Shown here: one piece after another, positions 3,001 through 43,917 of the stretch
Layout of the letters: each line of letters starts with the position of its first letter
Position numbering within the stretch: position 1 is the first letter of the stretch
Assembly (NCBI GenBank): GCA_030167865.1
Contig: JALAGF010001066.1
Span: 1-44,133, forward strand
Direction of reading: 5' to 3'
From: Craspedostauros australis
Taxonomy: Eukaryota
DNA length: 44,133 nt
Position numbers and translations under genes: made by a program
The notes under the pieces: model-generated
Database searches by the model: none
What the model was told of the DNA's origin: nothing
Seen by the model: only the letters and a program-made list of their open reading frames with translations

Positions 3001-3332
3001 TCACCAATTTCGGGAGGAAATCCACGATCACTCCGTCATCCCACTGTGAACTCAACCAGCGTTGTAGTTGGCTTGGACAAAGCGCGCAAGAGCGCTCATA
3101 CCAGACGACACTGGCTGATTCGTTCGTAGTTCGAAGTTGGAAGTTGTGGCAGAGTAGCAGCACTTCCATGCCACAAAGCACGACAAGTTGACAGACAATC
3201 AGAAGACCCCCTCCCCTTCTCTGCCTTGCGACCGCGCATACTTCTGGTGAAAGCAAACAACTTCAGGTTCCAACACAAACGCAAGCACGTTCGCATCTAC
3301 ATCCACATCAGCAAGGTCCGGTCATCTGCACC

Positions 3333-6300
3333 ATGGACCCTCGCCAAGGCAACCGAAGAAGCTCGATGGTATCTCCTGGAAGGTCTCAGCGACGATCATC
3401 GTCGCAGGAGATGAGGATCGGGGTGAGCCAAGAGCCTCAACCACCGCCGATGGACGCTGCGCAAAGACGCAGGCTGCAGCAAATTCAGAGGCAGCAGATG
3501 CTGCAATCACGCCAGCCTCGAAGTGTGATGATCCAGCATGGCACGTCCGCGCGGCCAGCACAGTCCAATCAGCGCAACGCTCCGCAGCGACCCACTTCAG
3601 CTCGGAATGTGAACGGCAACGCAAATAGCAACCAACGCTCACAAGCACGAGCGGGAAGTGCCCCACGTTCAGAACGATCTCTGAGATCACAGCATCAGCT
3701 CCCTGCGGTTGGTGCCAACAACCCTGCCAAGGCACGTCCCATGCAACGGCAAGTGCAGCAGAATCCACCGATGAATGAGGTCGATAGGGAGATCGCGATG
3801 AGGATGGAACACCATCGGCAGATGATCCTCGCCAACAGCGCCCCGTCGAAGAATCAGACCACAGCTGCGACCAGCGCAAGAAGCAATTCTCAGCGCCGCC
3901 AGGTCCAGCAGGGTAAGAGCAGTCGCAAACAACCAGCCCCGACGCAAGACTCTGTGCGCAGCCGCAGCCGCAATCGCAGCACCAGTCGCAACCGCGGAAG
4001 CTTCATCCGCTCGGTGTCTGCGACGCGTTCGCGCAGCATGTCGAGAGAAGGGCGCACGAGCAAGAAGCAATTGTCCGATGCCGCGCGCGAAGCATTGGGC
4101 ACGGCGCCTCCGGATGCCACCGAGGAGGCGGCCAAGATAGATGCGGATGAGAAGAGGGAGCACATGAAACTGGCGCAACAGCGGCAACGAGAGCTGCAGG
4201 ATTTGCACAAGCGCATGGAGCAGCAGAAGCAACTTCACATCCAGCAACGGCGCGAGGCCATCGCCAAAGGAAAAGCTGCCGCTGCAGCGGAAGCAGCCAC
4301 AGCCACTGTGCCACGGAAGGCGGCATCGAACACGAACAACTCCAAGGGCAGCGCCAGATCCATCTTTCCCTCCATGCAGCGTCCAAAGAACAACGAAGGT
4401 AAGCCAAACAATCAGAACCAGCAGGTACAACAGGCGAAACCAAGACCGGCGCCGCTGACCCCTGCGAGACGGGAGCAGCTCAAGAAGCAGCTGCAAGAGC
4501 ATGCGGTGCAGCGCACGGAAGAGGTGAGACAGGGCAAGAACCCAACCAAGATCCGACAGAAGATCAGCGAAGCTGCGACTCCGAGTGCACAGCATCGGGC
4601 ACCTCCTGCAAAGCGTGCACCGAAGGGAGCAGGAGCAGCAACATCCAATCGATCGCAGCCGGCGAAGAAAGCCAAGACTAAGAATTCAACGCGATCGGAT
4701 CATCATGACATCGAACACGCCAGCCAAACTCCGAGCAAGCATCAGCAGGGTCCCATCACCGATGAAGAACCGACGGCAAGCAACAGAAACAAGAGTGCAG
4801 CGCCCAAGAGAGGTGATCGTTCCAAGCTGTACTGGACGTTCTTGCTGCTCGGCCTGGTCCTTGCGCTCACCGGAGCAGCAATGTCCTATGTCCGTTACCG
4901 CATGCGCAATAATAGTGGCAGCGCCGCGGCGACACAAAATGAAGGCAGCGGCGGTCAGAATCCAAGTACTGATGGTTCGCCAACCAGCTCACCCAATCTT
5001 GCCCCGTCGGTCGATGGCGGAAAAGATGATGAGGACGAAGATGAAGATGACAAGAAGACGCCCAACAATGAATGGCAGGAGCGCATGGAGGGCATGATCC
5101 GCCGTGCCACCACGGATGAGACTGTCTTTGATGCAAAAGACTCGCCACAAGCAAAAGCGCTCCACTGGATGCTCCAGGTCGATCCGTTGGATTACAATAT
5201 CGTCAACGCACGTGTGTTGCAACGATACGCCCTGGCTGCGTTCTACTTCAGTACCGGTGGAGAGGATTCGTGGCAAGACAATGACTGGATGGAATCTGAT
5301 GAATGCGACGGATCTGCATGGTTCGGCACGAGCTGCAACGAAGATAGGCAAGTGCGGGCAATCGCCTTCGGTAAGTCAAGTTGTTTGCACACATGGTGGT
5401 ACTGCTTTGCCTTCAACGATGCCCACTACGTGTATCTTGTATGCCGAGAATAAAACTGGTGGCACGATGCGTGCTGGCATGTCATAACACGACATGCTAC
5501 ATCGTGCAACGTCGCATGACATGTGACATCAAATTTCATGTCACTCCATTCACCCCTCACCTGGTCTTTGTTTCTAACTCCAATTCCACCTGATTGTGCA
5601 TAACAACAGATAATCATGGCCTTGTTGGTTCCATCCCCGAGGAGATCGGTCTTCTCAGCATGCTGGAGAACCTCATCATCAAGAACAATCTTCAACTCGT
5701 CGGCCCCATCCCATTGTCGCTGGGAAAGCTCGCGGCGCTGCGACAGCTCGGTTTGTACAGCAACCGGCTAACAGGGTCCCTCCCACCCGAACTCAGCGAG
5801 GCGTACAACCTCAAATACCTCAACCTCGAAGACAACCGTCTCGGTGGCACCATTCCAACAGAATACGAACGCTTCTTCAGCTTGCGGATGCTCTCGTTGT
5901 CCAATAACTTCTTACGTGGCGACATTCCGTTCCATGAATTGGCACGAACGGACGTCGAGCATTTGAGCTTGAGCAACAACAAGCTGACGGGCACGATGGA
6001 TGGCAGCATCCAGCACTTCGTGTACTTGAAGGATTTGATGCTGGACAAGAACGAATTGAAAGGAGCGATTCCAAGCGAGATTGGACTGCTGACAACGTTG
6101 AGTAAGTGCTACAAACTGTCTCAGAGCATGCCTGTCTGTGTTGTTTGGTGACTGCATGATTCAATGCATGTGAGCCGAGAGCAATAGGAAGGAAACAATT
6201 ACTCACATTCGCACTCGCACTCACACTCGCCAATACTGTTGCCATCGCGTCTTCCGTATCCGACGAAAATCCGTATCATTCACCCCACTCCGTTCCAAAC

Positions 6301-7263
6301 ACATTCAATAGCCAACTTGGACTTGTCGCACAACAATTTTGATGGGCTCCTCCCGCCGCAGATTGGAAAGCTCCGGTTCTTGAAGTCGCTGGCATTGAGC
6401 AACAACGAGCTGTCCGGCGATCTTCCTCAGAACGTCGGTTTGCTGGTCTATCTTCAGTATCTGAACATGTCTGCCAACAAGTTCTCTGGACGGGTTCCCA
6501 ACATTTCCAACCTCGCGCAGCTCAAGTACCTTCACTTGTCGGATAATGACCTCACAGGCCCCTTCCCAGAAGCTATCCAACAGTTGTTGAATGTTGGTAA
6601 GTTGCTAAATGACGAGGATGCTTGAATATGGTCGTGTTGCGATATGCAAGCTTGGATGCTATTATTATGATGACCACGGTCGCTGGCTGTGTGCGGGATT
6701 TTGCTTCGCCAAAGTGACAGCTGATTTCGTTTCCAAGATACTGACTGATACATCCATCTTTGTTGCAATGTCCCATACTCTACAATTCTTTCACGAATGC
6801 ACGCGCAGAGGTGATTTACCTGAGCGGCAACAAGCTCAGTGGCAGCATCCCAGCCACCATTGATCGTCTGAGCAACTCCGTGCGTGGGCTCTACTTGTCC
6901 GATAACAACTTCGGCGGTCCCATCCCGTTTGCATTCTGCGATTTCTTCGACCTCGAGGCGCTCTTCTTGGACAGCAACCGGCTGGATGGAAGGATCCCTG
7001 CATGCTTGGGCGAGCTGACGCGCCTGCGACAGCTGTACGTCTTCCGCAACCGGCTGATGGGTGAGATTCCGAGCACGTTGTCCAAGCTGAGCCGCTTGAC
7101 AGGGCTTGGACTTGAGGCGAACAACTTTGATGGCAAGGTGCCCGATGAAATCTGCGTGCGCGATGTGGAGCTGTGGGCCGACTGCAACACCCAACCGGAT
7201 GGCGGTGCTGCCGTGACATGTGCCTGTTGTGACGTGTGCTGTCCTGGCAGCGATTGCATTTAG
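3333..7263 (+). CDS. Membrane-anchored leucine-rich-repeat protein, diatom type, about 1089 aa, 4 exons
   Basis: Exons 3333-5370, 5610-6101, 6312-6596 and 6809-7263. All three introns start GTAAGT, end (C/T)AG and are phase 1; splicing joins the ORFs at 3333, 5594, 6239 and 6760 in frame. The protein has a Q/R/S-rich disordered N-terminus, one TM helix (LYWTFLLLGLVLALTGAAMSYV), an SPQAKALHWM...LQRYALAAFYFSTGG..W cap, many plant-type LRRs (LxxLxLxxNxLxGxIP) and a C-terminal CACCDVCC cap. Confidence 0.92.
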
Positions 7264-8075
7264 CCCGAAGAAACAAACAATCGCAGACACACAGACACAC
7301 GCATAGAGTAAGAGAGAGAGAGAGACCGGATCGGCTGTTTGGAGTTCTTCGACAGCAGTTGAACAGCACAACTCAAATGAGACAAGCAACCGCAACGTGC
7401 GCGGGTGCATACACCTTTCCATAACAAGGAAAAGAAAACAAAAACGAGGAGAAGCTTCCTCTCCACGAGGAGAGATCACATCGTGTACAGTAAAGTAGTT
7501 TCAGACCATACCTATTCATACAAGTTGATAGAGTAGTTGGATGCTGCGCTGCGCTGTGCTGCGATGGGATGGGATCATCTCCTTCCTGCATCTTGATCTG
7601 TTCTTGGAATGAGTGTCCGTACTCTACGTCGTCATTGAAGGCGTTCTTGTGCATCTTTATTGCTGTGCGTTGCGAACCACCGCAGCATGCTTTGGATTGC
7701 GTGAATGGATCGTGGAGAGCATGATGTTTCGAAGGAAGTAGAATTGGGTGCTACTCTATCCCTGAGAGTCTTGCCCGAAAGCTTGTTGTTCTTACTGTGA
7801 GTTAATGTTCGGTTCGCGGTGGGTGTCAAGTCGGGTGGTTGTTGGGTCGGAGGCAATGAGATACAAGAAAAGAAGCAATGAGTGAGCCATGTTGTGCTGT
7901 CATGCGTGTATGTGCGCATCACGTCGCTTGGTGTGTAGGTGCGGAACTTACATCAATGTATGACTATCATGAAGTTGCAGATGGTGAGGGGTACAATTGA
8001 GCGTCGGTTATGAATGCGTGTGACGCACGGTGTTATGGATCGAAGCAATGGAACATGGTTTTATGCAGGTATGAG

Positions 8076-8478
8076 TTAGAAGGAAAGTCCAATGATGAAC
8101 TGAGAAGTAGGGCGTTAGATGGGGCTTGGGTTGACGTGATCGAGCCAACCATGACAAGAGACAACACAGACGGGCAGAGCATAGAGCAGAGTGGGAGATT
8201 CGCCTGTGTCCCAAGATTACATCCGCAGAGCACACCACACGGCACGCGTCATTCATTCAGTGCATTTGAATACGTACATCCTCCCATTCCTTGATCCATC
8301 TCATATCCTCCTCGTAGCGCACGTCTTCTTGGGACTTGTTCGTCGCTGGCGCCGTGGCAAGCGTACGCGGTCCGTCTCCGAGCGTCGACGTTCTTGCCAC
8401 CTTGTCGATGATCTTTCCCAGGTCGATGGTCGTCGGCCTCGAGAAGTACGCTTGCGAAAAGTTGCCCCAGCCTGTCAT
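8076..8478 (-). CDS. Small hypothetical protein (about 74 aa), micro-protein A
   Basis: The ATG at 8478 follows a CAA-rich leader (..ttccaaaATG). Predicted phase-0 intron 8277-8100 (GTACGT donor, CTAAC branch point, TTCTCAG acceptor). Spliced product: MTGWGNFSQAYFSR...LGDGPRTLATAPATNKSQEDVRYEEDMRWIKEWED|FIIGLSF*. Unspliced, it would stop at 8257. Confidence 0.55.
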
Positions 8479-9345
8479 TTTGGAAATCGTGTGGAGTAGA
8501 GTTTGGTTGCTGTTGTTGGTCGAGTTGGTTGCGTTGGTTGCTGCTGCTGATTATGAGAGCCCTGTTTCTGATTCCTCGAACTGGTGGCTGGTGGGTGTGG
8601 TGGCTGACCTGGTACGAGTTGCAGCGCAGGTACATGGTAGATGATGGCTGGCGAGTACGGTGGTTGGTGGGTGTGATGGGCGCCGCATCTTGTGCTGGTT
8701 GATGCCGGGGCACGTGGATCCCAGAATTTGGATTCGATTCCGCCGTGGTTGCCCAGTTCTCGTTCTCATTCCTTGACACCGGTCATCTTTTTCTTCGCGT
8801 TCTCATTTTTGGGAGAAACCGAACGCTAGAGGTCGATCGAGTCCAACAGGTAATCGTGACTCATACACAAGGGACTGGGTTGTTGCGACAGCAGGGTTCT
8901 CGTTGTGTGACATCATCAAGCATGCAAGAAGGTGACGACATCTTTCTTGGTTCGTTGCAGGCGCGCACACAGCCACGACGAGATTGTACTGGCGTGTTTG
9001 GTGCCTGAGCCACGAAGAGAAGAATGGAATTCTCTCGGAAGGCGTGACGATGTGTTGAAAGGAGAACGCTGGAGATTCCACAGAAGCGTGTTGACAGAGC
9101 GCCAGCGCACAACTCTGCGTTGAGAAAGATTGATGTCGTTGTTCCGCGGAGCGCTTTTGGTGATTCGCCTGCACGAAACGCTGGCTGCATTTGCGAGGCA
9201 GGATGTCACGTTCTTCCCAAGAGAAGGACCAACCCAATCTTCCACACATGAGCCCTGCACATCAACCAGCTCGCTGAGATCAGGCGAGGGAGATCAACGA
9301 GAAGACTGCCTTCTCGACCCACCACTGCCCGCATAATCTCAACAT

Positions 9346-9387
9346 CCATCGACACCCATCGACACCCATCGACAACCATCGACAACC
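9346..9387. repeat. 10-bp tandem repeat (CCATCGACA[C/A]) x4 upstream of micro-protein B
   Basis: Directly visible in the sequence. Confidence 0.8.
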
Positions 9388-9513
9388 ACCGCAAGCAGAG
9401 CAAAGGAAAGCAGAGACAGCACATCACAGAACAAATAGCACATCACCCCATCAATCAGCGGCAACAGCAACAGCAAGTAATAGCAATAGCAAGCAGAAAA
9501 CAGACAATCCAAG

Positions 9514-9795
9514 ATGACAATCGGAGCCCTCTTTTCGAAATCCTTTCACAGAACAATTCCGCGAGGCGATCCACCAATGGCCGGAGCGGGTGGAGACAGC
9601 ACGGCAGGTGTCCCCACAGAGGTCGGAGATGGCCCCAGATCCTTCTCTGCGGCCGTGTTGTTACCACCACCAGCATTCTCCGCCACAAGTCCAGCCCACA
9701 CACCGTCATTTCCAACCGCAGTATCACCCGCGACGGACAAGGAGACGAAACGAATTGAAGATACGCGTCGGATGATGTATCTTCATCCGTGGTAG
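9514..9795 (+). CDS. Small hypothetical protein (93 aa), micro-protein B
   Basis: The ATG follows a long CAG/CAA-rich leader. Shares MTxGxxFS..R, GDGPR and PAT(D/N)K with the divergent ORF at 8478 and ends MYLHPW*. Confidence 0.55.
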   Translation: MTIGALFSKSFHRTIPRGDPPMAGAGGDSTAGVPTEVGDGPRSFSAAVLLPPPAFSATSPAHTPSFPTAVSPATDKETKRIEDTRRMMYLHPW

Positions 9796-9956
9796 CGATC
9801 TGTTCCCACAGATTTCTCTCTCTCTCGCTCCTGTTGCGAAGAGCATTTCTCTACTTTTTGAGTACGACACTCCATACCAAACACTACATCCAAACACTCC
9901 ATCCAAACACAACCAGCCATCACAAAGCAAGCCAGGCACCGGCCTCTCGATTCAAC

Positions 9957-10049
9957 ATGAACTCATTCACTCGGACAACACCGAACCATACACGCGAACC
10001 AGGTACAAAGCGGAGCAAGAGGCAAATCGAAATGCATCCCTGGTCTTGA
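9957..10049 (+). CDS. Putative 30-aa micro-peptide C
   Basis: The ATG at 9957 (ttcaacATG) follows a CA-rich leader at 9870-9950. MNSFTRTTPNHTREPGTKRSKRQIEMHPWS* has the same terminal HPW as the upstream ORF. Confidence 0.3.
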   Translation: MNSFTRTTPNHTREPGTKRSKRQIEMHPWS

Positions 10050-10139
10050 TGCACGAGAATTCATTGATCAGCTGAACTCTCGCAGAACAGTACGCGTACA
10101 TGCCATATCATAATAATCAAGAAACAAACACAGCCATCG

Positions 10140-11738
10140 TCATTGAATCTTTTGCTTCTTGTTCTTCCTGGGAGTTTGTTCCTCCTCCTGTTCTTTCTGT
10201 TCCTCTTTGCGTTCTGCAATACTCCATTCTGCCTTCAGATTGCAAACGAACGGATGGTCCTCGCCGACGCAACCGCGCGATGTTTCGATCGCCGACTGCA
10301 ACTGCTCCTTGCACTTATCCAGATCGCCAACGCAATAGTAGTCATAAGCACAGGCTTGATGTTGCGTCGCCACCGTCATGGGATCCACCAGCTCGACGCG
10401 ATCCAAGAACAGCAAGTGATGCTGTACGGCGTCTTCGTGTTTGTGTTGCAGACTATCAATCATGGCCAACAGGCGATGCAGCTCCAAAGCTACCTCGTGG
10501 TGATGCGAAATGCCTTGATTGCTGACGCCGCGTTGCAGCATCTGCATCATGCCGCGGGCTTGGTGCAAGATGTCGTCATCCATAGTGATGGTGTTGGACG
10601 AGTCTACCGCCTTGATACGCAACGACATGGCCCACGGTTGCAACCTGCTAGACCATTCGTGTTGTATGGCGCGCAAGGTATGGATATCGTGACCGGCTGG
10701 CAGTTGCAGTTTGCAATCCTTGTTGCACACAATGCAGTTGCATTGGAAACCGTATCCATCCTGCAGCAGCTGTTGTCGTTCCGAACGATCCATGCCGGAC
10801 ATGGGAATATAGCTGACCGTGATGAGTACGTCCGTCCCGTCAATAGCTTCCATCAAATGCACACGCGCACGCATCCAACCATCGCCATCGCCGACGACGC
10901 ACGAGAGAAAGGCGTTGGGTTGACAGGCATGATTGTAGAAGGAATGTTCCAAGAAGATGGCCTTGCCCAGCATCTGATCGCCCAGCGGCCTCGTGAAGTC
11001 CACGACGGCGTGGCCGCAGCCGATGATGCGACCCAACGCAGCACCGAAGTTGTTCATGGATAGCCAAGAATAGTCCGGTTTGGGATCCTGCGATGCAGTC
11101 TGATTGTCATCACTCTGAACCGATGACTGTAGCAACCGCTGCGTGGATTGCAGCAGCAATTGAATGGCCGGATCCGAGCCGACATCGGCCGCATACAGGG
11201 CATCGAAGAGTTCCCAATTCAATGATTCTTGTTGTTGTTGTGCATGCTGTCGTGACTCCTTGTACCGCCGAAATAACAATCGCACCGCCAACAGGAGGGT
11301 GGTGTCAATCTCAGCATCGTCCGTCGACGTCAGCTGCCCCATCGCCTGCCGCATGCATCGCAGCACGTCGCATTCGCTGATAGCATCGCCATACTTCGTT
11401 GAATGATACAACTCGCAATCACCGCAGACGGAGACGCACTCGCACCGCGTGCAGAATGTTGCATCGCGCCCGCAGCAGATCGCACAGTGCGTCCTTCGAT
11501 GTGCGGGATCCAAGGCAATCGCGGCGGCACGGCATTGCAGCACATCGAATCCATCGGAAATGGCCGCAACGCCTGCGTTGGGTTGATGGATTGCCGTCAA
11601 TTGATTGTTGGATGCTTTGCGTAAGGCATCTTGGATGCAACGCAGGCGTTTGTCTTGTTGTGAAAGCGTTGGTTTGGATCTGTGGTGTTGTGTGGGCGCG
11701 ACATCAGTCGATTTGAGGTTTGGATCTTCGTCTGCCAT
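10140..11738 (-). CDS. SET/MYND (SMYD-like) lysine methyltransferase, about 532 aa
   Basis: Cys-rich MYND-like segment (CAICC..CTRCECVSVCGDC), SET motif SFYNHACQPNA, ITVSYIP, post-SET YGFQCNCIVC and a TPR-like tail (..CVGEDHP). The ORF opens at 11810; the start is placed at MADED (11738) after the CA-rich leader. Confidence 0.85.
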   Translation of the reverse strand: MADEDPNLKSTDVAPTQHHRSKPTLSQQDKRLRCIQDALRKASNNQLTAIHQPNAGVAAISDGFDVLQCRAAAIALDPAHRRTHCAICCGRDATFCTRCECVSVCGDCELYHSTKYGDAISECDVLRCMRQAMGQLTSTDDAEIDTTLLLAVRLLFRRYKESRQHAQQQQESLNWELFDALYAADVGSDPAIQLLLQSTQRLLQSSVQSDDNQTASQDPKPDYSWLSMNNFGAALGRIIGCGHAVVDFTRPLGDQMLGKAIFLEHSFYNHACQPNAFLSCVVGDGDGWMRARVHLMEAIDGTDVLITVSYIPMSGMDRSERQQLLQDGYGFQCNCIVCNKDCKLQLPAGHDIHTLRAIQHEWSSRLQPWAMSLRIKAVDSSNTITMDDDILHQARGMMQMLQRGVSNQGISHHHEVALELHRLLAMIDSLQHKHEDAVQHHLLFLDRVELVDPMTVATQHQACAYDYYCVGDLDKCKEQLQSAIETSRGCVGEDHPFVCNLKAEWSIAERKEEQKEQEEEQTPRKNKKQKIQ

Positions 11739-12249
11739 GATTGTGGATTTGTGGTGGTTGTTGGTCGCAAGGTGCGTGCGTACGCTTGCGATCATGAGGA
11801 GGTCGCACAAGGATGGAAACGTGATGTTGATGTTTCATTCGTTGAAGTCAAAAGGCGATCCTCGCCAAACTTCAAGAAGTTGGGGATACGAGATTCCGTC
11901 CGTTTGTGGGGAAACGGCTCGAAAAAGATCGGCACATCACATCACATCAATCCACGCTGCCATCATCATGGAGCTGTCCTGTTCTCCACAGCTGTTGATT
12001 CGCTTTGTTTCGTGAGAAAGTCTAATACTAATACTGGCGCGATGGCAACAAACGAGTGCAAGAGAGCATTATATTATATAATATGTTATATATTAGCAAT
12101 GGAGTGGAGTATTAGTAAGACGTTACTCCATTGAATCCACTCTCTAGTGTGCACAATAGCACTGATGAACCATGATCTATGCACCCTACTGTACTCCCAT
12201 ACGAAAGCACCCAGAGTAACGATACTCCATACTAGATTGAGCACTCGCA

Positions 12250-13902
12250 TTACACGCTGCGCCCATCTTCCGTATCGAACGCCGACGACGCCGACATATC
12301 ATCACCCAACTGTCCCCAGAACGACGTCTCCATATCGCTGTGAAAACAATCCAACCCGCGCCCCATCTGATACCGCTGCAGCACCCGCTCCCGCAACCGC
12401 CTGGCCGAATGCGGACCATCCGTGCGAAAGATGGCTAGGTATATATCCTCAAAGACGAGCTCGGCCATGCCCATCTCATCGATGTCGTTGGTATCGCAGC
12501 CGAACGGGTCGTCCAACGTCATGGAGACGTACTCCGTGCCGACGAAACCGAACGTGATGAGGAAGACGATGATGACGGTATCGCCCAGCGACTCCATCTG
12601 CAGCAGCAGCACGAGCGGCAGGGAGTAGGTCCAGAAGAAGAGGAACATGCGCGTCATCTGCACGAGGGGAAAGGGATACGGCGTGAAGATGAGAACGCGG
12701 AAGCCATGAAAGGCCTTGTTGAAGTCCGTGACGAAGTGGCACAGATCGCGGTACTCGTTGGCGTGCAGCGTGTAGCCCAGCGCCTCGGGATGGTGCATGA
12801 TGGTCTCACGCAGCACCTGCGCGAACATGGTCGTGGCTCTAAAGTTCTCATCGACCATGGTGCGGCGGCCGTGGCTGAACCTGTTCATCTTGCGCGAGGT
12901 GCGGTCGCTGGGTTTGTAGGTGTTCTCCCAGCTGTCGCGGTGCTCGGAGCTCCAGCGCAGCGTGTCCATGGTGATGCGGAGGAGGAGGATGGTGCGGTAT
13001 CCCATCTCCTGTCGCCAGGCGATGGCCGCGGGCGTTTGCGTCTTGAAGGTGTAGACGGTGGTGAACTGCATGATCTCGCGGCACGAGCGGTAGGTCTCGG
13101 CCAGGTAGTGGCGCATCTCCATGAAGCGGCTGTAGGAGACGCCGGAGCGCGAGACGATGAGGAAGCTGACGAGGAGGCCCATGAAGGAGTGTCCCGTGGG
13201 GGACTTGAAGGTGAAGTCGACGATTTTGTTCTCGCGCAGGACGTGCACCAGGATGGTCCACAGGATGTTGGCGATGCAGAACGGGAAGACGGAAGGCAGG
13301 GCGCTGCCGTACATCTGGAACAGCACCTGCACGTGGTTCTGGGCCGTGTAGGCCACGCGTCGGATCTTTCTCTTCTTCGCTTTGCCCTTGCGAGTGTTAC
13401 CTTGATTATTGCCTTGATTGTTCATGAAGGGCATCCCATTGTTCATCCCATTGTTCATCCCATTGTTCATATTGCCGTTCATGTTGCTCTGCGTATTGGT
13501 TGCAAAGTCTTTGGAAGCATGAGCATACCCTCTTCCCGCTGAAGCATCGCCTCCTCCAGATGGCACCGGCAAAGGAGGCCGCTTGCCTGCTTGGAACTGC
13601 TGCGTCCTTGGAGATGCTGCTGCCGCTGGTGGGCGTTGCATGGAGAAGGAATCGTACGCGAATGAGACGTTGTTGGAGTTCAGTGGCTTGGAGGCTTGGC
13701 TGGTGTTGCCATTGCCATTGCCATTGATGTTGGTACCTGCTGCTGTTGCAGTGCCATCATTGGATCTGCCATACAACGGCTCATGTTCTGCCGTCTTGGG
13801 AGACATGATCAATCGTTCACTTTCTTGCTCACTGTCTTGCTCACTGTCTTGTCTATTGTTCTTGTCTCTTATAATATGATCTATTCGATGATAACCTGAC
13901 AT
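12250..13902 (-). CDS. Bestrophin-family (UPF0187-type) anion channel, 550 aa
   Basis: Motifs YGSALPSV, GLLVSFLIVSR...YSRFMEMR, TPYPFPLVQM, four hydrophobic segments and EYVSMTLDDPFGCDTNDI. The long low-complexity N-terminus has no signal peptide. Confidence 0.9.
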   Translation of the reverse strand: MSGYHRIDHIIRDKNNRQDSEQDSEQESERLIMSPKTAEHEPLYGRSNDGTATAAGTNINGNGNGNTSQASKPLNSNNVSFAYDSFSMQRPPAAAASPRTQQFQAGKRPPLPVPSGGGDASAGRGYAHASKDFATNTQSNMNGNMNNGMNNGMNNGMPFMNNQGNNQGNTRKGKAKKRKIRRVAYTAQNHVQVLFQMYGSALPSVFPFCIANILWTILVHVLRENKIVDFTFKSPTGHSFMGLLVSFLIVSRSGVSYSRFMEMRHYLAETYRSCREIMQFTTVYTFKTQTPAAIAWRQEMGYRTILLLRITMDTLRWSSEHRDSWENTYKPSDRTSRKMNRFSHGRRTMVDENFRATTMFAQVLRETIMHHPEALGYTLHANEYRDLCHFVTDFNKAFHGFRVLIFTPYPFPLVQMTRMFLFFWTYSLPLVLLLQMESLGDTVIIVFLITFGFVGTEYVSMTLDDPFGCDTNDIDEMGMAELVFEDIYLAIFRTDGPHSARRLRERVLQRYQMGRGLDCFHSDMETSFWGQLGDDMSASSAFDTEDGRSV

Positions 13903-14376
13903 GTGTTACTCCATACTTTGTTGAGTTTTTATGACTGACCTTCGCTCTCTTGCTCTCTCTTGCTTTCCCATCTCGTTTGGATACGACAACGCACCATCAC
14001 CCTTGGCAACCATCGGTGATGACACCATCATCGCCCGTCAGCGCAAACAAACGAAATGGCATCAATTGCTCCTCCGCAGCTGCAACAATGTGCGAACAAC
14101 GGACTTATGACCACGTTGGAGCAGGTAGAGTACCGCGGAGTATTGACGTCAACTTCGCTCACTTCCAAATTCAAACAACAAGAAACCGACGGAACCAACA
14201 TCGGGAAAGGCCGAAAAATACCGCGGCGACAAAGACAAAAGGCAGTTGGTTGACGGAACTTCCGCATTTGCCCCTGACACATCTTCTGGAGGATGAAACT
14301 CGTGACTTGATGTTGAAATGGGATTCAATGGAGGTATCTCTAGGTTTATGCATGTAGTCTATATCGTGTGCAACGA

Positions 14377-22357: not shown

Positions 22358-24234
22358 TCAATGCACACCGCCGTGCGGGACATCCCCTCGATCCTCCAGA
22401 ACGACGTATTCCGACATGATATCTCGCACCTGAGCCGTCATCTGCTGGCGGTGGTACTTCTTGTAAACCGCCAACGCGACGCTCAGCAACGTGAACATGC
22501 CGACCATGCAAAGTAACATGGTGAACATGGAGACCGTCTTGGGTTGCGTGTCCCATTGCGCATCGGGTTGCGTGTGGGCGATGATACCGCTGCTGGACTT
22601 GCCGCGCGTGCTGGGCTTGGACTTCTTCTTCTGCTTCGTGCTGGGAGAGAGACAGTCCAGCACATCCGCCTCGCCATGGCAGTGGGTGCAGACGGATGGC
22701 TCGGTTCCACGACCGAAGGAGCCGCAGATGGCCGCGAAGACGCCGTTCGTCGTGAGCTGTCCTTGGAAGGGCCGGTTGTTGACCTTCAAGGTGGGCGTGG
22801 CGACGATGCCCTTGTTTTCCATCTCGTTAAGTTCCGTCTCGATCAGCGCGTTGACTTTGTCGTCTTGCAATCCGCCCGAGTGCTGCATGCAGGCGTCGAT
22901 GAGTGACTTGTCGATGTTGGCCTTTTGCAGGGCGCTGTTGACGCAGTGGTCATCGTTGAAGAGAGTCTCGTAACAGTGGTCCACGAATTCTTCTACGTAG
23001 TCCCACCATGGCGTGCCGACGCCGTCCTTGCCGTACTCCTTCCAAATGCAGATACGACGCAGGCTCTCCGTGACGGAGTCGATACCCGAGATGTCGCCCT
23101 GCGAGTCCTCGTGCTTGTCCATCTGACAGTAGCGCCCTTGGTTGGTGCATAGATCGGAACACTGGTTGCTGTACGCGGTGTTGCGACAGCCGATCTTGTT
23201 GCCGTCGTGCACCACGACGTGGGGTTCGAAGATGGCGTGACTGCGCAGGGCCTCCGCGATGTGACGAAAGCCGCGTTGCAATGAGTGTTGGAAGGCATCG
23301 GATGGCGTCATCCATAGCTGGTAATGCACGCGTTGGTGATCGGGATTGTCTTTGGGCCATGCCATCTTGGCGCGCACGAATACATCGTCCATGAGGGAGG
23401 CCTTGAGGTCGTCGGCTTCCTGCTTGGCCACGAGGAAGGATGGAATCGTGATGTCGCCGCCGGATCCATCATCGGCCATGAGGGGTTCCCTTGGCTCGCA
23501 TGGCTTTTTGGAGACGCAGTTGTGACCGGCGGTGCAGAGACAGACGTCGTCGGCAATGAGGACGCCGCTGGCCCCCGCCATCTGCGCGTTGCGGACCTTC
23601 TGAACGAAGGTGCAGCCGCCGCGGTCCATCATGAGGATGAAGGGGTTGCGCGATGGCAGCATGCCCCCGTTGCTGGCATCGTCGATGTTGGCTTGCGGAT
23701 ATATGTTGGTCGTGTATGCCGGAGTGGGATCGCACATGTCTGAGTCGACGTAGTAGACGAACTGCTCGATGGCGATGCCCAGCGGAGGCATGCCGAACAG
23801 GGCCTCCTTGTGTTCATATCCATCGGTCTTGCGCAGTGATGGAGGTACCTGTGGATGTTGGTGTGTTGGAATGTTGAAGCGATGGAATGTTGATGTGTTG
23901 GAGTGTTGATGTGTTGGAGTGGAAGGTGAGCGAATGATGTGAATGGTTGATTGGGGTTGATGGGTCAACAGGCGTGACCACCTGGCTTCTCTCAGTCATA
24001 GAGTACTCGTGAAGCAGACACTCAGTCATCACCGGAAACAACTTCCATGATCGTTAGAAGCCAACTTCCACAATCGTTAGAAGCCAACTGCGATCACCAA
24101 CCATCTGAACGACGCACCGTGATCTGAAGCTGACTGGCGCTTTCGACAACCGCCATGGTCGCCGCCGCCATGGTCGACACCAGACAGAGACCAAGCTTGG
24201 TGCTGGATCGTTGCGAACACAACATGATGAGCAT
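22358..24234 (-). CDS. Vacuolar sorting receptor (BP-80/VSR family), about 535 aa, 2 exons
   Basis: Exons 24234-24118 (signal peptide, ..SQLQIT) and 23848-22358, with a phase-0 GTGCGT...ACAG intron. EALFG.PP, PA domain MDRGGCTFVQKVRNAQMAGA, ITIPSFLV, CTNQGRYC, ESLRRICIW, WWDYV, AICGSF, a TM helix and a cytosolic IMSEYVVL motif (cf. plant VSR IMAQYMPL). Confidence 0.92.
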
Positions 24235-26058: not shown

Positions 26059-28226
26059 GGTGGCTGTCGATCTGTTGCCGTGCCAATGCTATATAGAATA
26101 TTATAGAATAGAATAGAATACACGAGTGTTGTGATGGCACCAGTATCGTGCTTCTTGTCTGTGCGCTTCTTGGTGGAGCTGCTGACAAGATCAATGTGAT
26201 GGAATGCTGATTAATGATGGAAGCAAAGAGGATGGCTTGACTTGTGGGTTGTGGTGCGACCTATTCCTGTGGATGCTGATGGCAGACAGATGCTAATGCA
26301 GATGCTAATGCAGATGCTGGCGCTAATGCGTTTCTCGCCCCTCCACTGGATTGTCCTCGACTTCTTTGGCCCTCTACGATCTCTTTCTCTTCTGCTTGCG
26401 CTGTGTTGGCTCAGCCAGATACTGACTATCAGTAGTACAGTATAACGTAATATAAAAGCTCGTATAATCCGAGCAGGCGTATGTTTGATGGCCGCACTGG
26501 TCTCTTTGTGTGGGTCCTCTCTATTGGCGCTGTCCACCAACACTGTCTATTGACGCTGTCTATTGATGCTGATGATGTTGTCGGAGGGGATGAAGGCGAC
26601 GCAGTGGCTGCCACAGATTATATCACTTCACTTCACTTCACTCTACTTCACTCTACTTCACTCTCCTCTCTGTTCTTCTTCAGAAGCAGCTCAGCCAGCG
26701 TTGGTTGATGCCTCTTCTTGATTGCTGTTTGTGAATTGTGTTGTATTGTGTTGTCTCTTTGTGGATTGTATTGTGTTGCTTGGCATGTTCCTGTGCAATG
26801 GTAGATCGTACCTTGTGGCTTGTGCGAGAATGATGCTGTTGTGGTGGTGGTTGTCGTCGTCTTCTTGGTCTTGTTGTGCACACTCTTGCTGACCAATCCC
26901 CACTTTCTTGTCGCTCTCTGCCTCGTCGTTGTTTGTTTGCTGTTTGTGCACAGCACTCTCTATCCGCGTCAAGTGCCACAGAGACAGCCGCGACAAACCA
27001 AACCAGGAAGGAACCCCAAGCGAAGGATCCCGCCATGGCACGTCCTGCGCTTCGCTCTTACGCTTGCTTGTCTTGGTCTGGTTGTCTTTTCTTGGTCTGT
27101 TAACAAAGGGCGTGTCACGTCTCTGTTTCAGAATCGCGCGATTCCTGAAACCACAACCCGCACAGGTATCGCCACAGCCAGGTTCTTGGTACCTCTATCG
27201 CGTTTGTCGCAGCCGTTTTCTTTCCCCAAACTGGCACGATCACTGTTGTCACCCAACTTTACAACTATGGTGGGTACCGGAAGGGCACAGAACATGTTCG
27301 TGGCACATTTGGTTTGTCCCTTTCATGAGTCGCAGGTGTATCACGTTCCGCCTTGAACCTCGTTCGTGTCGTGCTGTTTGTTTCCTTCGAACATCCCTCA
27401 CTTTTAGCCTTGCCAGACACGAGGTCATTCGTTCCGCCTTCTCTTCCATGACCCCTTGCGGCACAACAAGACTCTTGGTCCGCCTTTCAACTTCAACGTC
27501 ACGTCACGTCGAGTAGAGTACATGGCGCGACGACCTTCGTGTAGCAGCGTCAACAGTCACAATTCACCATCACAGCCCAGACAGAAAGGTACTAACAACA
27601 ACCACACCAATTGCAACCACGACAGAAACTTCCGCTCTCTCTTCTGATTTGTGTCATTGACATTTTATTGTTGACCACTAGTACTTTAAGTCTAGAGATT
27701 GGGCGTTCTGGGACAAGAAATCAGCTTTTTTGTCCATCCATTCATTTTCTAGGTCTTCTTGAAATTCAGTCTCAACTTCGCACGAAAAGAAGCCCTAATG
27801 GACTAGATGGACTAACTAGTCTTCAAGTGTACCGAAAGTGACATATCAAACGATCCCATTTTCCAAGAGAGCTACTCACATCAACCCCAAATCCAAATCG
27901 TGGAAAAACCCTCGCAAAAAGATCCGTTGCTCTCTTGCGCGTCACCAACATCAGCAGCCTCCAAACCCATTCACTCCCTGGCATCCAACACGAGTACCAT
28001 CTCTCGCACGTGCAGATGGAGAGAGGAAGAGATAACGAGACAACGAGATAACGAGAAAGAAAGAAAGAACAACCCACAAGCAGCAGCATGTTGGTGGAGG
28101 TCAAGCGTTGGCCTCCGAACCACAATGAGGAAGATCATCACCATCCATCGATCGTGCGTTTCTGAATTGCCATCATCCCATCTCCTTGCCTTCCATCGAT
28201 CGCTCATTCCTTCCACGCTTGCCACG

Positions 28227-30068
28227 ATGATCATGATGATCACGGCATGGTTGGCGCCAACGACGATCCATGGCATTGCGATGCATGCAAGGAGGATGTC
28301 CTGCAGAACGCTTGCGTGCGGATATGCGGTCTCCTTTCGACCATCGCACAACAATCATCCACGGTGGGTTCGACCGACGGCGTTGGCAGATGTTGATGGG
28401 CGACGCAGCAGCTATTCGCAGTCTCGCGCCACACCTAGATCCACTCGTGCGAGTATGTCCAGTTCCAGCGACGGCGATAAAGACAACAAGGCCGCCATTG
28501 CTGCTTCCACCTGCAAGTCCGTCATTGACAATGCCATCGATCGCCAAATGAGAATACACGTTCTCGATGCACAGACGGACAACGTCCTGCTGCTCTGCGT
28601 CAGCGGAGGATCGGATTCGATGGCGTTGCTGCATGCCATGATTGATTGGTCCGAACGGCAGGCAGCTCCCACAAACGCGCCGCATCTGCACGTCCATCAT
28701 TTCAACCATCAGCAACGCGGCGCCGAATCGGATCTCGATCAACAGCTCGTGGAAACCGTGTGCGAGGCGTCCAACGTTGACTGCCACACGCATCGCTGGA
28801 ATGAAACATCGTCGTCGTCCTTCTCGCAGGAGATCGCACGCAATTGGAGACGCCAAACCTGCGTGGATTTCATAGCGACGCAGTACAGCGCAACGTCCCA
28901 CGTCAACGCCTTCATCATGACGGCGCATCATCGTGAGGATTCCTACGAATCAATGCTCCTCAAACTATTGCGCGGCGTCCACATTTCCAATCTGCAAGGC
29001 ATGGATTGTATTGCGACTGCCGGTGTGGCGCGGTCGCCCAATCTGCGGATCCAGTACTTTCGCCCTTTTCTGGAATTGACGAAGGACCAGCTGCGGGATT
29101 ACTTGCTGGAACAGAAACACGCATGGCGCGAAGACAAGAGCAACGCATCGCCCAAGTACCTGCGCAACCGCGTGCGCAACGAGCTCATGCCGCTGATGCA
29201 AGACATTATGGCCAGCGATGGTGAACAGCCGCAACGCGATGCGCTGCACGAGCGGCTGGACGTCTTGCAAGAGCAAACCACCATGCTGCGGGATGACATC
29301 CAACAACGCGTGCGGGCCTATCTGTCACAATCCGGCTCTGCCTTGCCTTGGAAGGACCTGGTGTCGTCGGATTCGCCCAACATGACGCCGTTGTTGCAGA
29401 ATCAGATCTTGCGTCAGTGGATGGTGGATGGCATTCATTCGCCTTCTGCATCCATCTCGTACAGCACACTGTCCCGGGTTTGGAAACAGCTCGTGGAACA
29501 TCCGCAGCGTCGGGAATGGAAGCTCGAGGTCGGCGCCAACTATTTCGTCTGCCGCAAGGGCGATGTGTTGGTCTTGGAAGATCGGCAGAAGCAGGAGAGT
29601 GATGGCTCTTTTCGCGTGATGGAATGGTCCATTGTCCTCCCAACCACAGACAAAGAAACGAATGAGACGACAGCAGAGACAACGAGAGAGACAACAAATG
29701 ACTTTATGCAACCGCTCACGATCCACGCTCCCGCCCATTTGCTGGCGCAGGGCGATTGGCAGCTGATTCAAACCACAATCGACGATTGGCCTGCAACGCT
29801 CCACTTCGTCCCGCACTGGAGACGTGGACGCAGCCCCATCAAGATGCGCCAATTCCTCAGAGGTCAAGGCATTCCGCTGCACGAACGCGGCAGCACGTCG
29901 GTTCTTCTTTTCGTTCCGCGGCGGGATGATGCGTCCGCCGTGGTCGTTGCCGCACGTCTTGGTCGAGAGTGGCTGGTACATGCGGACTTTGGTGCCGGCA
30001 ACATGCATGACAACGATGGTGGCAACGATGATGATGGAAGTGTCACAATCGCGGTTCACATCACGTGA
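28227..30068 (+). CDS. tilS: tRNA(Ile)-lysidine synthetase, nuclear-encoded and probably organelle-targeted
   Basis: PP-loop LLCVSGGSDSMALLH, HFNHQQRG, TAHHREDSYESMLLKLLRG, RPFL, WREDKSNASPKYLRNRVRNELMP and a C-terminal K(M)RQFLRGQGIPLHER TilS-C-like motif. The R/S-rich N-terminal extension suggests targeting. The start is uncertain (the ORF opens at 27900). Confidence 0.92.
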   Translation: MIMMITAWLAPTTIHGIAMHARRMSCRTLACGYAVSFRPSHNNHPRWVRPTALADVDGRRSSYSQSRATPRSTRASMSSSSDGDKDNKAAIAASTCKSVIDNAIDRQMRIHVLDAQTDNVLLLCVSGGSDSMALLHAMIDWSERQAAPTNAPHLHVHHFNHQQRGAESDLDQQLVETVCEASNVDCHTHRWNETSSSSFSQEIARNWRRQTCVDFIATQYSATSHVNAFIMTAHHREDSYESMLLKLLRGVHISNLQGMDCIATAGVARSPNLRIQYFRPFLELTKDQLRDYLLEQKHAWREDKSNASPKYLRNRVRNELMPLMQDIMASDGEQPQRDALHERLDVLQEQTTMLRDDIQQRVRAYLSQSGSALPWKDLVSSDSPNMTPLLQNQILRQWMVDGIHSPSASISYSTLSRVWKQLVEHPQRREWKLEVGANYFVCRKGDVLVLEDRQKQESDGSFRVMEWSIVLPTTDKETNETTAETTRETTNDFMQPLTIHAPAHLLAQGDWQLIQTTIDDWPATLHFVPHWRRGRSPIKMRQFLRGQGIPLHERGSTSVLLFVPRRDDASAVVVAARLGREWLVHADFGAGNMHDNDGGNDDDGSVTIAVHIT

Positions 30069-39239: not shown

Positions 39240-40154
39240 TTACAGCTGCTCGCGCTCCCGGCGCCCTGTCACCAGATGCCACAGCCGCCTCGGGCTTTGA
39301 TCATGGCGTGGTGCTTCACAGATTGGCACCGCCGATGCTTGCGGCGCGTGCGGCTCAACATCCCCAACAAATGCGACGTTGAGCATCATGTGACGATCCG
39401 AGCCGCTGAGCGGAATGCGCAACGGGTTGGGTGCCAGCTGGAGATTCCTGCCACTGAAGCAGTTCGCGCGGCGCAGTTGGGTTGCGGAGATTCTGTATTT
39501 GAGACAGATGCCTTCGAAGGTATCTCCCTTGTTGACTTCGTGTTCTGCATAACATACGACGGAGGCGTTGGTGATGTTCGATTCGGGATCCGTTGTTGAG
39601 ATTGATACTGGTGACGCCGTTGGGGTAACGTCAGCTTGTGGTGCAACTGATCTGTCACGCAGGGATGATGCCAATGACCTTCGTGAGGTGGATGGCGACA
39701 TCCGGTTGCTTCGGCCATCATCACTGTCCTCGATCGGAGCCACATCTGCGATGGGAATGTGTTGAGAGTCAAGGCCGCGGTTGTTGGTTCCTTCTCTCTC
39801 GGGATCCTCATGGATGGAAACAGGAGGAGGAGTGGAGTTGCTGCTGCCATTATCTCCGCTCAGATTGTGCGCCGAAGCCTCACCGTGCGCACGCACACGA
39901 GTGGAAGGACGATCGCAAAGACATGCGCTCATATTCTCAATTGCTGTTTGTGCAGCATCCATGTCCTGGGTTTGCGTCATCCCAGTGTCAGCGCTGACAG
40001 AACAAGGTGATGATGCAAGCAATCTTGGGAAGCATCGGTGGGATGCGTGGTTGTCTTCTGCCATGATGTCGCCTGTCATCGGATCGAGCAATGACAAGAA
40101 TGAAGGCGGTTGGCTGGTCCCTCTTGTCTCCGTTGCCCAACATCTCAGCGTCAT
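39240..40154 (-). CDS. LysM-domain protein with a disordered N-terminus; 5' end uncertain
   Basis: C-terminal LysM: HEVNKGDTFEGICLKYRISATQLRRANCFSGRNLQLAPNPLRIP. The frame is open from 40331 but the first ATG is at 40154. A possible acceptor CAG at 40327-40325 would imply an unseen upstream exon. Confidence 0.75.
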   Translation of the reverse strand: MTLRCWATETRGTSQPPSFLSLLDPMTGDIMAEDNHASHRCFPRLLASSPCSVSADTGMTQTQDMDAAQTAIENMSACLCDRPSTRVRAHGEASAHNLSGDNGSSNSTPPPVSIHEDPEREGTNNRGLDSQHIPIADVAPIEDSDDGRSNRMSPSTSRRSLASSLRDRSVAPQADVTPTASPVSISTTDPESNITNASVVCYAEHEVNKGDTFEGICLKYRISATQLRRANCFSGRNLQLAPNPLRIPLSGSDRHMMLNVAFVGDVEPHAPQASAVPICEAPRHDQSPRRLWHLVTGRREREQL

Positions 40155-40655
40155 GCCTTGGATCTCCACACCAGTGTTGGCGTCGATGCTGGCGCTGACC
40201 CCTTCGTCTCTCTTCCCAGCAGAATCAGAAGCAGCATCAACACTGATGTTGTTGCCGTCGTCACTTTTCCTTTTTTGTGTTTCGATTCCTTCAAAAAGTG
40301 TTCCATTCGTTTCTTCATTGTTCTCTGGGACTCAACTTGAACGTGTTGGTCTAGCGAATCACACAGCAGAACTTCAAGTTCAACCTCATTCCTTCGCATA
40401 CAAACGTTTATAGACGTTAATCTTGATATTTCAAAATGCAGTCAGGTCCTTTGTGTCAGCGATTGGCATCAATTGTGTATCTGCCTTTGCCGTCACCTCT
40501 CTTGTGCACCAAAGATACGGTCGCTGTTGATGGTGGCGAAGACTCTTCGCCTCCATCCATCCATGCGATACTCTCTCACTTCATAATCCCTTGGTTATGT
40601 CATCGTGTGGCACCGCACAAAGTATGGAGGAATGAAGACAACCAGGACGTCGTGA

Positions 40656-41751: not shown

Positions 41752-43917
41752 CTAATAGAACTTGGTGGACTTGTGCGTGAGAATGCCGAGGGCTGACAGA
41801 CGGAACAGCACAAAGAGTGCGAGGAGGACCAGCCAGTACCAGTACGTGTCATCCTCCTCGGCATCCATGTTGCTGATCACTCTCTCGCACTTCTCGGCTG
41901 GATCGCACGATGCGAATTCTTGCAACACCATCAAGCGAAGAGCGTAAGTCAAGGAGCAAAGGTACTGCGCCCATCTCAACCACGATGGAATGAGATCAGT
42001 GGCCACGAAGAATCCTGCGAACAGCATCTGCGGGACGAAGAGCATGGGCAGCAGTTCCGTTGCCGTCTTCGGATCTTCCACCGCTGCTCCCAACGCAACG
42101 GCCAGCGCGGCGGACACCATGGCCAAGGCGTAGTTGATGAGGAGGAACCATCCGAAGCTCATCTGGAAGTCGATCATGTAGAAGGTGATGATGGACAGGC
42201 AGAAGATCTGGCCCAAGGTCAGGACGGCCTCGACTGTGAGACGGGACAGGAAATAGGCGAAGATGTTGTAATGGTTGGTGGAGTATTCGCGCAGGAAGAC
42301 TGGGCGTTGGGAAGGGAACTGGAGCAGCGCATCGTCAGCCGTGCCAAACATGGCCATGAGCAGGACGACGATGAGGGCGCCCCAACGACTTTGCACGTTT
42401 GTTTGCTTGGAAGGATCCTCCGCGCCGACATCCCAGAAGATGACGCCGATGAGGATGCCCAGAAAGATGGTGAGACCGTATCGTGTTCCCACAGCTCCGA
42501 CGTCGCGCTTCAGGTTGATGAACTCGCGACCGAACAGAAGGCGGAGCTGCGTGAGGATGCCGACCTGGCGCGCATCGAACTTGTCATCGTCCATTCCGGT
42601 GGAATGATTGGTGATACCAAGGGCGTCGCGGCCAGTCTCATTGAGTCCATCCAACGGCGGTGCCATGTCGCGCTCGTCGGTGGGGAAGAATCCATCCTTC
42701 TCCAGCTGCTTGATGTCCTTGGCCTGGGCCACCGCCATGATGTGGTCGGACACGTTGTAGTACTGCGGGACTGGGCTGTTGCGTTCCGCGAAGTGCTGTG
42801 GGATTGCATCAACGGCTCCCTGGTACATGACGCGCCCCTTGTTCATGAGGATGAGGTGGTCGAAAGAGTTGAATATCTCGCTGGATGGCTGGTGGATGGT
42901 AAAGAGGACACTGGCGCCAGCGTTGGCGACCTTCTTCAGCACCTGGCACAGCTGGACGGCAGAGAAGCTGTCCAATCCAGATGTCGGCTCGTCCAAGAAG
43001 ACAAGAGCTGGCTTGGTGACCAGCTCCACTCCCACGGATGTTCGCTTGCGCTGTCCGCCGCTGATGCCCTTGATGAGCGGTCCTCCGACGATGGTGTCGG
43101 CGCAATCCATCAAACCGAGCTCGGCGAGCATGCGGGTGGTCAGCATCTCGATTTCCTCGTCGGTGGTGGATCGTGGAAGACGCAGCTTGGCGGAGAAGCG
43201 GATGGCCTCGCGTGGAGTCGATGTGACTGGGAGGGAATCATCCTGCGCCACGAAGGCGATCTGCTGACGTACGTTGATATCGGTAGGGTCGACGGTGTAG
43301 TTGTTGAGACGGACGTCAGCATCGATGGTGATCGCGCCTCCAGTGGCGGCTCTTCCGGCCAGGATGTTGAGGAGGGACGTCTTGCCGGCTCCACTGTTGG
43401 TCGTTGGGGTGATAGATGTGAATGGATAGATGTGGGTGGATAGATGTGAATGGATAGAGTGGAATGGGTGGAGGTTGAGAAATGTGCTTCGGTATGTTGA
43501 TGCAGATTACGCGGTCAGTACAGCGTGGAATTACACGATTGCAAACATCCCAACAGAGCAACGATATCAATGCAATCGATTCATCAGAAACCCGCTTTTC
43601 ATACAATCGTACCTTGGTCCCATGATGGCTGTGGTTTGCTTGACTGGGACTTCTCCCCACACCTTCTCGAGAAGCATGCGATCGTCCTTGCCATCCTTGC
43701 CTGCCAAGGTCATGTCGACATTGGTCCATGTGAGCGTCTTGCCGTCACGTTCCGCGAATGGATCACCGCGAATGGACATCGCAGACGCGGTGGTTTGGGC
43801 ATCGTTGGAGTTGTCATGAGATAGCTTGTGGTTTGTGGCGTCGTCATTCACGCCAATTTCAACGTCCTGCATGGTTGCAGCGTCGGTGTCGATGTTGATG
43901 TCGTTGATGGTTGTCAT
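41752..43917 (-). CDS. ABC transporter G family (White-type) half-transporter, about 648 aa, 2 exons
   Basis: Exons 43917-43613 and 43393-41752. The phase-2 GTACGA...ACAG intron splits Walker A, giving GPSGAGKTS when spliced. Q-loop VAQDD, signature ISGGQRKR, Walker B VFLDEPTSGLDS, TIHQP, then an ABC2 membrane domain. Confidence 0.96.
43409..43470. repeat. Degenerate ~14-bp tandem repeat within the ABCG intron
   Basis: gatagatgtgaatg gatagatgtgggtg gatagatgtgaatg gatagagtggaatg. Confidence 0.8.

Follow-up and report, generated by a model that had tools for sequence, protein, structure and literature searches.

Overview of the locus

The described systems closest to the locus reported here are the orphan small-protein genes and small open reading frames (smORFs) of eukaryotic microbes, divergent gene pairs on bidirectional promoters, natural antisense transcripts and mitochondrial presequences. 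The locus is located in a 44,133-nucleotide (nt) stretch of Craspedostauros australis DNA (GenBank assembly GCA_030167865.1, contig JALAGF010001066.1, positions 1 to 44,133 of the forward strand), which was analysed as a whole and is referred to as the window, and is composed of two short head-to-head open reading frames (ORFs), A on the minus strand and B on the plus strand. Like orphan smORFs, A and B have fewer than 100 codons, lie within RNA-derived contigs, are the first-AUG ORFs of their transcripts and have no detectable relative in very large collections of proteins; unlike them, the two ORFs resemble each other in a head-to-head arrangement, and the codon bias of A is as full as that seen in established genes. 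Young orphan genes are often without that bias. Bidirectional promoters are reported to be used in a stramenopile alga (PMC5785352). The present locus resembles such divergent pairs in its head-to-head arrangement, in the distance of less than 1 kb between its transcript ends and in the similar contig depth of its partners in one run, whereas here the partners are apparent paralogues, consistent with an inverted duplication, and the shared promoter is presumed. Natural antisense transcripts are described in a diatom (PMC7445176), and the 3' part of the A contig is likewise antisense to the end of a leucine-rich repeat (LRR) gene; in contrast to those transcripts, RNA A bears a codon-biased 5' ORF, as an mRNA with an overlapping tail would and a long non-coding RNA would not, and the strand of the tail is not fixed by the contigs. 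With mitochondrial presequences the two predicted proteins share a stretch of 18 acid-free N-terminal residues, with some basic and hydroxylated residues in B. Unlike presequences, A has a single basic residue, its residue 19 is acidic, and no amphipathic helix is predicted.

The evidence leans modestly toward a head-to-head pair of short genes in which A is coding, B is a sister that diverged from it after an old inverted duplication, and a presumed promoter is shared by both. The locus is of an ordinary kind, an orphan small-gene pair, and its uncommon features are a 12-nt terminal microexon in A and the apparent paralogy of the divergent partners.

Transcripts and gene structure

Both divergent ORFs that an earlier note on this DNA had placed at 8478 on the minus strand and 9514 on the plus strand are present as described, with a distance of 1035 bp from ATG to ATG:

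8257-8478, minus strand: ORF A, start codon ATG at 8478, 73 amino acids (aa) when unspliced
9514-9795, plus strand: ORF B, 93 codons (93 aa), first-AUG ORF of transcript B

The sole public run containing the locus, X1, consists of contigs that the index only guesses to be of RNA origin. X1 contains 41% of the sampled words of 6000-12000, and nine of its contig records were matched on 4000-14000; none of the contigs listed covers the spacer 8533-9337, the introns or the LRR exons further upstream, and no inference was drawn from these gaps. Both ORFs fall inside X1 transcript contigs, A in record 2 and B in record 3. Record 2 (1442 nt) follows the window from 8532 to 8278, continues with 12 letters and then follows 7794 to 6621, with no other letters than those of the window. 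The 12 letters inside the joint are identical to window positions 7952-7963. The stretches skipped at the joints are bounded by CT..AC as read on the plus strand, corresponding to GT..AG on the minus strand. As only spliced RNA yields a contig with such exact GT-AG joints, X1 does include cDNA, and RNA A can be assigned to the minus strand. The transcript has the following structure:

8278-8532, minus strand: exon 1 of transcript A (record 2), a 54-nt CA-rich leader without ATG, then 67 codons from the ATG at 8478
7964-8277, minus strand: intron 1, 314 nt, GTACGT...AG, joint in record 2
7952-7963, minus strand: microexon, 12 nt, situated between AG and GTAAGT and supplying the final four codons of ORF A (S-Y-I-D)
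7795-7951, minus strand: intron 2, 157 nt, GTAAGT...CAG
6621-7794, minus strand: last exon, starting with the stop codon TAA (7794-7792) and followed by a long 3' part of uncertain extent

The first ATG of the transcript is found at transcript position 55. The spliced frame is composed of the 67 codons of exon 1 and the four codons of the microexon followed by TAA, and the length of about 74 aa given for A in the earlier note comes down to 73 aa for the unspliced ORF and 71 aa for the spliced product. The splice junction that had been proposed at 8277/8100 is correct for its donor; the acceptor at 8100 is unused, and the real joint leads to the microexon at 7963. The predicted protein A is acidic (isoelectric point, pI, 4.8) and soluble, without cysteines or a membrane segment. 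Intron 1 does not have an unusual fold (z-score 0.15). A role for A as the host gene of a small nucleolar RNA or other known RNA was considered and rejected, since the Rfam search of 6400-10400 (expectation value, E, up to 1) returned nothing credible, its single hit being a chance one (18.8 bits, where the gathering score is 45).

The contig with ORF A extends 1171 nt beyond the stop codon, and this tail is antisense to the last exon and part of the last intron of the plus-strand LRR gene. The contigs are unstranded, so the 3' part of record 2 might include a convergent RNA. Where it overlaps the LRR gene, the A tail might have a regulatory effect as antisense RNA.

Record 3 is shorter and corresponds to the second ORF, with a repeat at its 5' end:

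9338-10130, plus strand (presumed): transcript B, an unspliced 793-nt contig, record 3
9339-9391, plus strand: 10-nt tandem repeat of about four CATCGACACC-like copies (family D1)

The contig contains no joint and no other letters than those of the window. It has nine ATGs on the plus strand, the first of which is at 9514, versus 24 on the minus strand. ORF B is preceded by a 176-nt ATG-free leader and has an A at -3, a good context provided that the RNA is the plus strand, as is presumed. The encoded sequence is rich in P, A, S and T. The CATCGACACC-like tandem copies sit exactly at the start of the RNA B contig (9338), and a 14-mer related to the same unit is found inside the coding part of A at 8422-8435 (inverted-repeat pairs I5-I7).

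The word depth of the A and B contigs is 853 and 866, respectively, versus 4-15 on neighbouring genes in the same run, contig depth being a poor gauge of expression. The transcription of the pair assumed in the earlier note agrees with the position of both ORFs in transcript contigs, with the qualification that the RNA origin of X1 is guessed and the strand of B presumed. The fraction of C+A is 0.80 in the leader of A and 0.76 in that of B, versus 0.48 for the window. The CA-rich leaders reported for the two ORFs are therefore real, and the accompanying statement that the real genes of the window have them too did not hold at the one other gene start checked, that of the SET-domain gene (0.54 in the 100 nt upstream).

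Coding character of ORFs A and B

A codon table was derived from nine ORFs of the window that were long or had Pfam support, and each codon was scored as a log-ratio against the mean of five wrong frames. The scores per codon and the GC content at third codon positions (GC3) are as follows:

Real genes, 54 chunks of 70 codons: +0.24 per codon (standard deviation 0.22), GC3 0.70
152 small ATG ORFs of the window: -0.16 per codon (standard deviation 0.17)
LRR exons held out of training: +0.29 and +0.27, GC3 0.73 and 0.69
ORF A: +0.25 per codon, GC3 0.75
ORF A, other two frames: -0.47 and -0.11, GC3 0.50 and 0.50
ORF B: -0.07 per codon, GC3 0.51
ORF B, other two frames: GC3 0.58 and 0.63

ORF A ranks first among the 152 small ORFs and is level with the real genes. 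With a spliced transcript and a gene-like codon usage that is specific to its frame, ORF A clearly looks like a protein-coding gene. When ORF B is cut into three parts, each of them scores 0 or below, and B may be weakly constrained or non-coding. Out of 5000 shuffles each, 211 yielded a first-ATG ORF as long as that of A and 112 one as long as that of B, which is modest support. Two minus-strand ORFs downstream of the A stop codon (93 and 296 codons) have non-coding scores of -0.02 and -0.10, respectively, and no Pfam match, and the longer one is antisense to LRR codons; ORF A is consequently not an upstream ORF of a larger gene.

Relationship between A and B

The two ORFs carry a series of short motifs. 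The GDGPR motif is encoded by GGA GAC GGA CCG CGT in A (8379-8365) and by GGA GAT GGC CCC AGA in B (9625-9639), and the synonymous differences in four of the five codons are as claimed earlier. Also as claimed, both ORFs contain PAT(N/D)K followed by ED(V/T)R, in the same order. The N-terminal motif MT.G..FS that had been described as shared is out of register (M-T-G-W-G-N-F-S in A and M-T-I-G-A-L-F-S in B), with M, T, F and S alone coinciding. The 152 small ORFs of the window, which form 11,360 pairs without overlap, served as the pairwise background. An exact 5-mer is common to 104 of these pairs, so that the argument from GDGPR and its synonymous codons is weak alone. The synonymous codons had been taken to point to selection on the peptide, and this is not supported: the shared start residues use identical codons, the best evidence is identity of DNA, and selection on the peptide finds no orthologue to support it.

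The start regions of the two ORFs match each other:

8449-8490, minus strand: A start region, -12 to +30 relative to the ATG, matching the B start region
9502-9543, plus strand: B start region, -12 to +30 relative to the ATG, matching the A start region

The sequence TCCAA(A/G)ATGACA (TCCAARATGACA) occurs exactly in the window solely at the start of A and at 9508-9519 in B. In an ungapped, ATG-anchored comparison of -12 to +30, A and B are identical at 26 of 42 positions and are reciprocal best matches among the 2008 ATG sites (next best 22, mean 12.9, standard deviation 2.7). At least 26 identities were reached by 119 of 2,015,028 site pairs, many of them in tandem repeats. The reciprocal-best relationship is kept in five of six other sizes of the compared region, the exception being the upstream-only one (-12 to +3). 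The similarity stems from the first ten codons, which are the best-conserved part of A and B, and not from the upstream bases.

The single BLASTP comparison of A with B gives E = 0.001. The shuffled-alignment check raised in the earlier note had a qualified outcome, the observed score of A and B being matched by 14 of 2000 shuffles. With soft gap costs, 103 of the 11,360 pairs reach the A-B score and A and B are then mutual best partners. After removal of the first 14 residues, 167 (standard gaps) or 51 (soft gaps) of the 11,360 pairs match the A-B score, placing it in the top 0.45-1.5%, and 9 of 2000 (standard) or none of 2000 (soft) shuffles reach it. The frame of B keeps all four shared blocks in the order of A, over an insertion of approximately 25 residues, with no stop or frameshift. 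A tblastn search of A and B against the window did not identify a third copy. Given the reciprocal-best start regions, the similarity of the remaining residues and a C-terminal helix predicted in both proteins, it is likely from sequence comparison that A and B are of common descent through an old inverted duplication.

Predicted structure and localization

Single-sequence AlphaFold2 models place a 17-residue C-terminal helix at or after PAT(N/D)K in each protein, at residues 50-66 in A and 72-88 in B. B is predicted to be coil except for this one helix. The models (predicted local distance difference test score, pLDDT, of 62) contain no N-terminal helix in either protein, and no amphipathic presequence helix is predicted. 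The basic, acid-free N-terminus from which a mitochondrial presequence had been proposed is in part present: neither protein has an acidic residue among its first 18, and the N-terminus of A is not basic. Within the first 20 residues, A has one K/R and one D/E, the latter at position 19, and B has three K/R and one D/E. The presequence idea fails for A on this composition and on the whole-protein pI. Mitochondrial import is a minor possibility for B and unlikely for A. Both products are tentatively taken to be small proteins of the cytosol, disordered over most of their length and ending in a helix.

Relatives in databases

A word-based search of 5.8 billion protein clusters with A gave no candidate at near lengths and 24 candidates at longer lengths, none of which reached E <= 1. 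The same search with B returned solely its own 72-aa form, which starts at M22. A full HMMER scan with B over 1.84 billion representatives returned B itself and P0002 alone. P0002 (1718 aa) contains a repeat that matches one B motif 14 times, and the match is read as chance. The ESM Atlas provided no usable match for A or B, a sequence search of the Protein Data Bank (PDB) had best E values of 0.45 and 0.44 for the two ORFs, and Pfam gave no match for either at E <= 0.1. When metagenome contigs were searched with A, one of at least 598 pattern matches passed. This match lies at the N-terminus of a sigma-factor-like bacterial ORF (L001, 1247-2530), which has in common with ORF A an exact 8-residue word and a nearby DGPR.LA, and it is read as coincidence. 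The own protein of A is absent from the protein collection, so orthologues could be missed likewise. No described family matches A or B in the searched collections, in agreement with the earlier description of the proteins as undescribed.

Spacer and neighbouring genes

The two contigs point away from each other, with 5' ends at 8532 and 9338 that are less than 1 kb apart and only approximate the transcription starts. They leave the following interval between them:

8533-9337: spacer between the contig 5' ends, 805 bp, presumed bidirectional promoter

The three ORFs within the spacer have non-coding scores (-0.10, -0.16 and -0.02), and its inverted repeats are limited to short CA-rich matches. 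The bidirectional promoter of about 1 kb suggested earlier finds its counterpart in the 805 bp that separate the divergent contigs, the shared promoter itself being presumed. The spacer of approximately 0.8 kb presumably serves both genes as a common promoter.

The other genes identified in the window are as follows:

5594-7263, plus strand: LRR gene, multi-exon, Pfam LRR_1 and LRR_8, Cys-rich tail at the end
10140-11795, minus strand: SET-domain-like gene, single-exon ORF, 551 aa, weak SET and TPR matches
12250-13905, minus strand: bestrophin (Pfam)
22358-23995, minus strand: vacuolar-sorting-receptor-like protein (Pfam PA and VSR_TRX)
27816-30068, plus strand: PP-loop ATPase (Pfam)
39240-40331, minus strand: LysM protein (Pfam)
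41752-43506, minus strand: ABC-2 (ABCG-type) transporter (Pfam)

The Pfam LRR repeats are found on the plus strand at 5594-6151 and 6745-7263, with an LRR intron at approximately 6598-6809. A 753-codon open frame at 3192-5453 on the plus strand, rich in Q, R, S and K and without a Pfam match, continues into the LRR region and may be the 5' part of the LRR gene. Several X1 contigs touch the LRR region at 5808-6316 only in part; their ends are loose and they contain mismatches (5 other letters among 37 in record 1), and these are probably from LRR paralogues elsewhere in the genome. The SET-domain-like gene converges on RNA B, and its stop codon is 10 nt from the end of the B contig.

Favoured and alternative explanations

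In the modestly favoured reading of a coding gene A and a diverged sister B, an old inverted duplication would have given rise to two short genes diverging from a presumed shared promoter of approximately 0.8 kb. Gene A would be expressed as a three-exon mRNA whose first AUG opens the 71-residue acidic soluble protein, with the end of the protein encoded via the microexon and the stop codon opening the last exon. Gene B would give an unspliced RNA of approximately 0.8 kb whose first AUG opens the 93-codon frame, with the motif order and the C-terminal helix of A kept. B would lack the codon bias of the genome's genes, whether through loss or from the outset, and it would probably be translated and weakly constrained.

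Several results weigh against this reading. Codon bias is absent from B, whose score (rank 51 of 152) falls within the non-coding distribution, and the B frame is open in T-poor sequence, where open frames come cheaply. With standard gap costs, 277 of the 11,360 ORF pairs score equal to A and B, and each of the two has an equal or better random partner. The region of B is picked up by tblastn only at E 0.89, and the local DNA alignment of the two loci is equalled by 89 and 156 of 1000 shuffles. The start-anchored test was devised after the similarity had been seen, and its nominal probability is optimistic. No orthologue or relative of either protein was found in protein clusters, the Atlas, the PDB, Pfam or metagenome contigs; the Atlas 'recognition' values of 1270 and 1739 are below the 2300 reached by 91 of 100 known-family proteins, and the pLDDT of both AlphaFold2 models is low in confidence. 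Transcription rests on one run guessed to be RNA, with unstranded contigs that do not fix the strand of B or the 3' extent of A.

In another explanation, only A would be protein-coding and RNA B would be non-coding, either a divergent promoter-associated transcript or a decayed duplicate, with a frame that is accidental in T-poor DNA. This explanation is somewhat unlikely, and is consistent with the codon log-ratio of B, which is at or below zero in all three parts, with its GC3 of 0.51 versus 0.70 in real genes, with a HMMER scan that gives B itself and a chance repeat protein alone, with the prediction of coil apart from one helix, and with an ORF below 100 codons whose first-AUG length is equalled in 112 of the 5000 shuffles. 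An accidental frame would nevertheless have to hold the four shared blocks in the order of A, across the insertion and without a stop or shift, and to have as its best-conserved part the first 10 codons; its AUG is also the first after the leader, with A at -3 and a 12-nt context as in A. A more radical version, in which neither RNA is coding, RNA A serves as natural antisense transcript to the LRR gene converging on it and the small ORFs arose by chance, is very unlikely. The A contig does run antisense to the last exon of the LRR gene and into its last intron, neither ORF has a found relative, and natural antisense transcripts are described in a diatom (PMC7445176), but the antisense part may belong to another RNA, the contigs being unstranded. 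The codon usage and frame-specific GC3 of A are those of real genes and the best of the 152 small ORFs. The A stop codon lies past the last splice joint, as would be expected of an mRNA escaping nonsense-mediated decay.

The family proposed in the earlier note, of small proteins imported into mitochondria via a shared N-terminus, is the least probable of the explanations considered. The acid-free first 18 residues of both proteins, the three basic residues in the first 20 of B and the conservation of the N-terminus would fit it, while the composition of A (a single basic and a single acidic residue among the first 20, pI 4.8) and the lack of a predicted N-terminal helix in both proteins speak against it. 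A more elaborate history, which is unlikely though less so than the last two, would have a lineage-specific small-protein family originate when a gene was duplicated in inverted orientation about its promoter, both copies being highly translated. A would later have gained two introns, the terminal microexon of 12 nt and a tail exceeding 1 kb that runs antisense through the LRR receptor-like gene, and one strong promoter would make a small protein and repress a neighbour.

Implications

The gene model of A is corrected to a 71-aa product that ends via a 12-nt microexon, a kind of exon that gene finders usually miss. The locus has no bearing on any long-standing open question. If the reading of a coding gene A and a diverged sister B is true, the pair would be a clean case for the origin and divergence of small lineage-restricted genes, in which copies on one promoter have opposite signatures, one being codon-optimised and spliced and the other unspliced and without codon bias.

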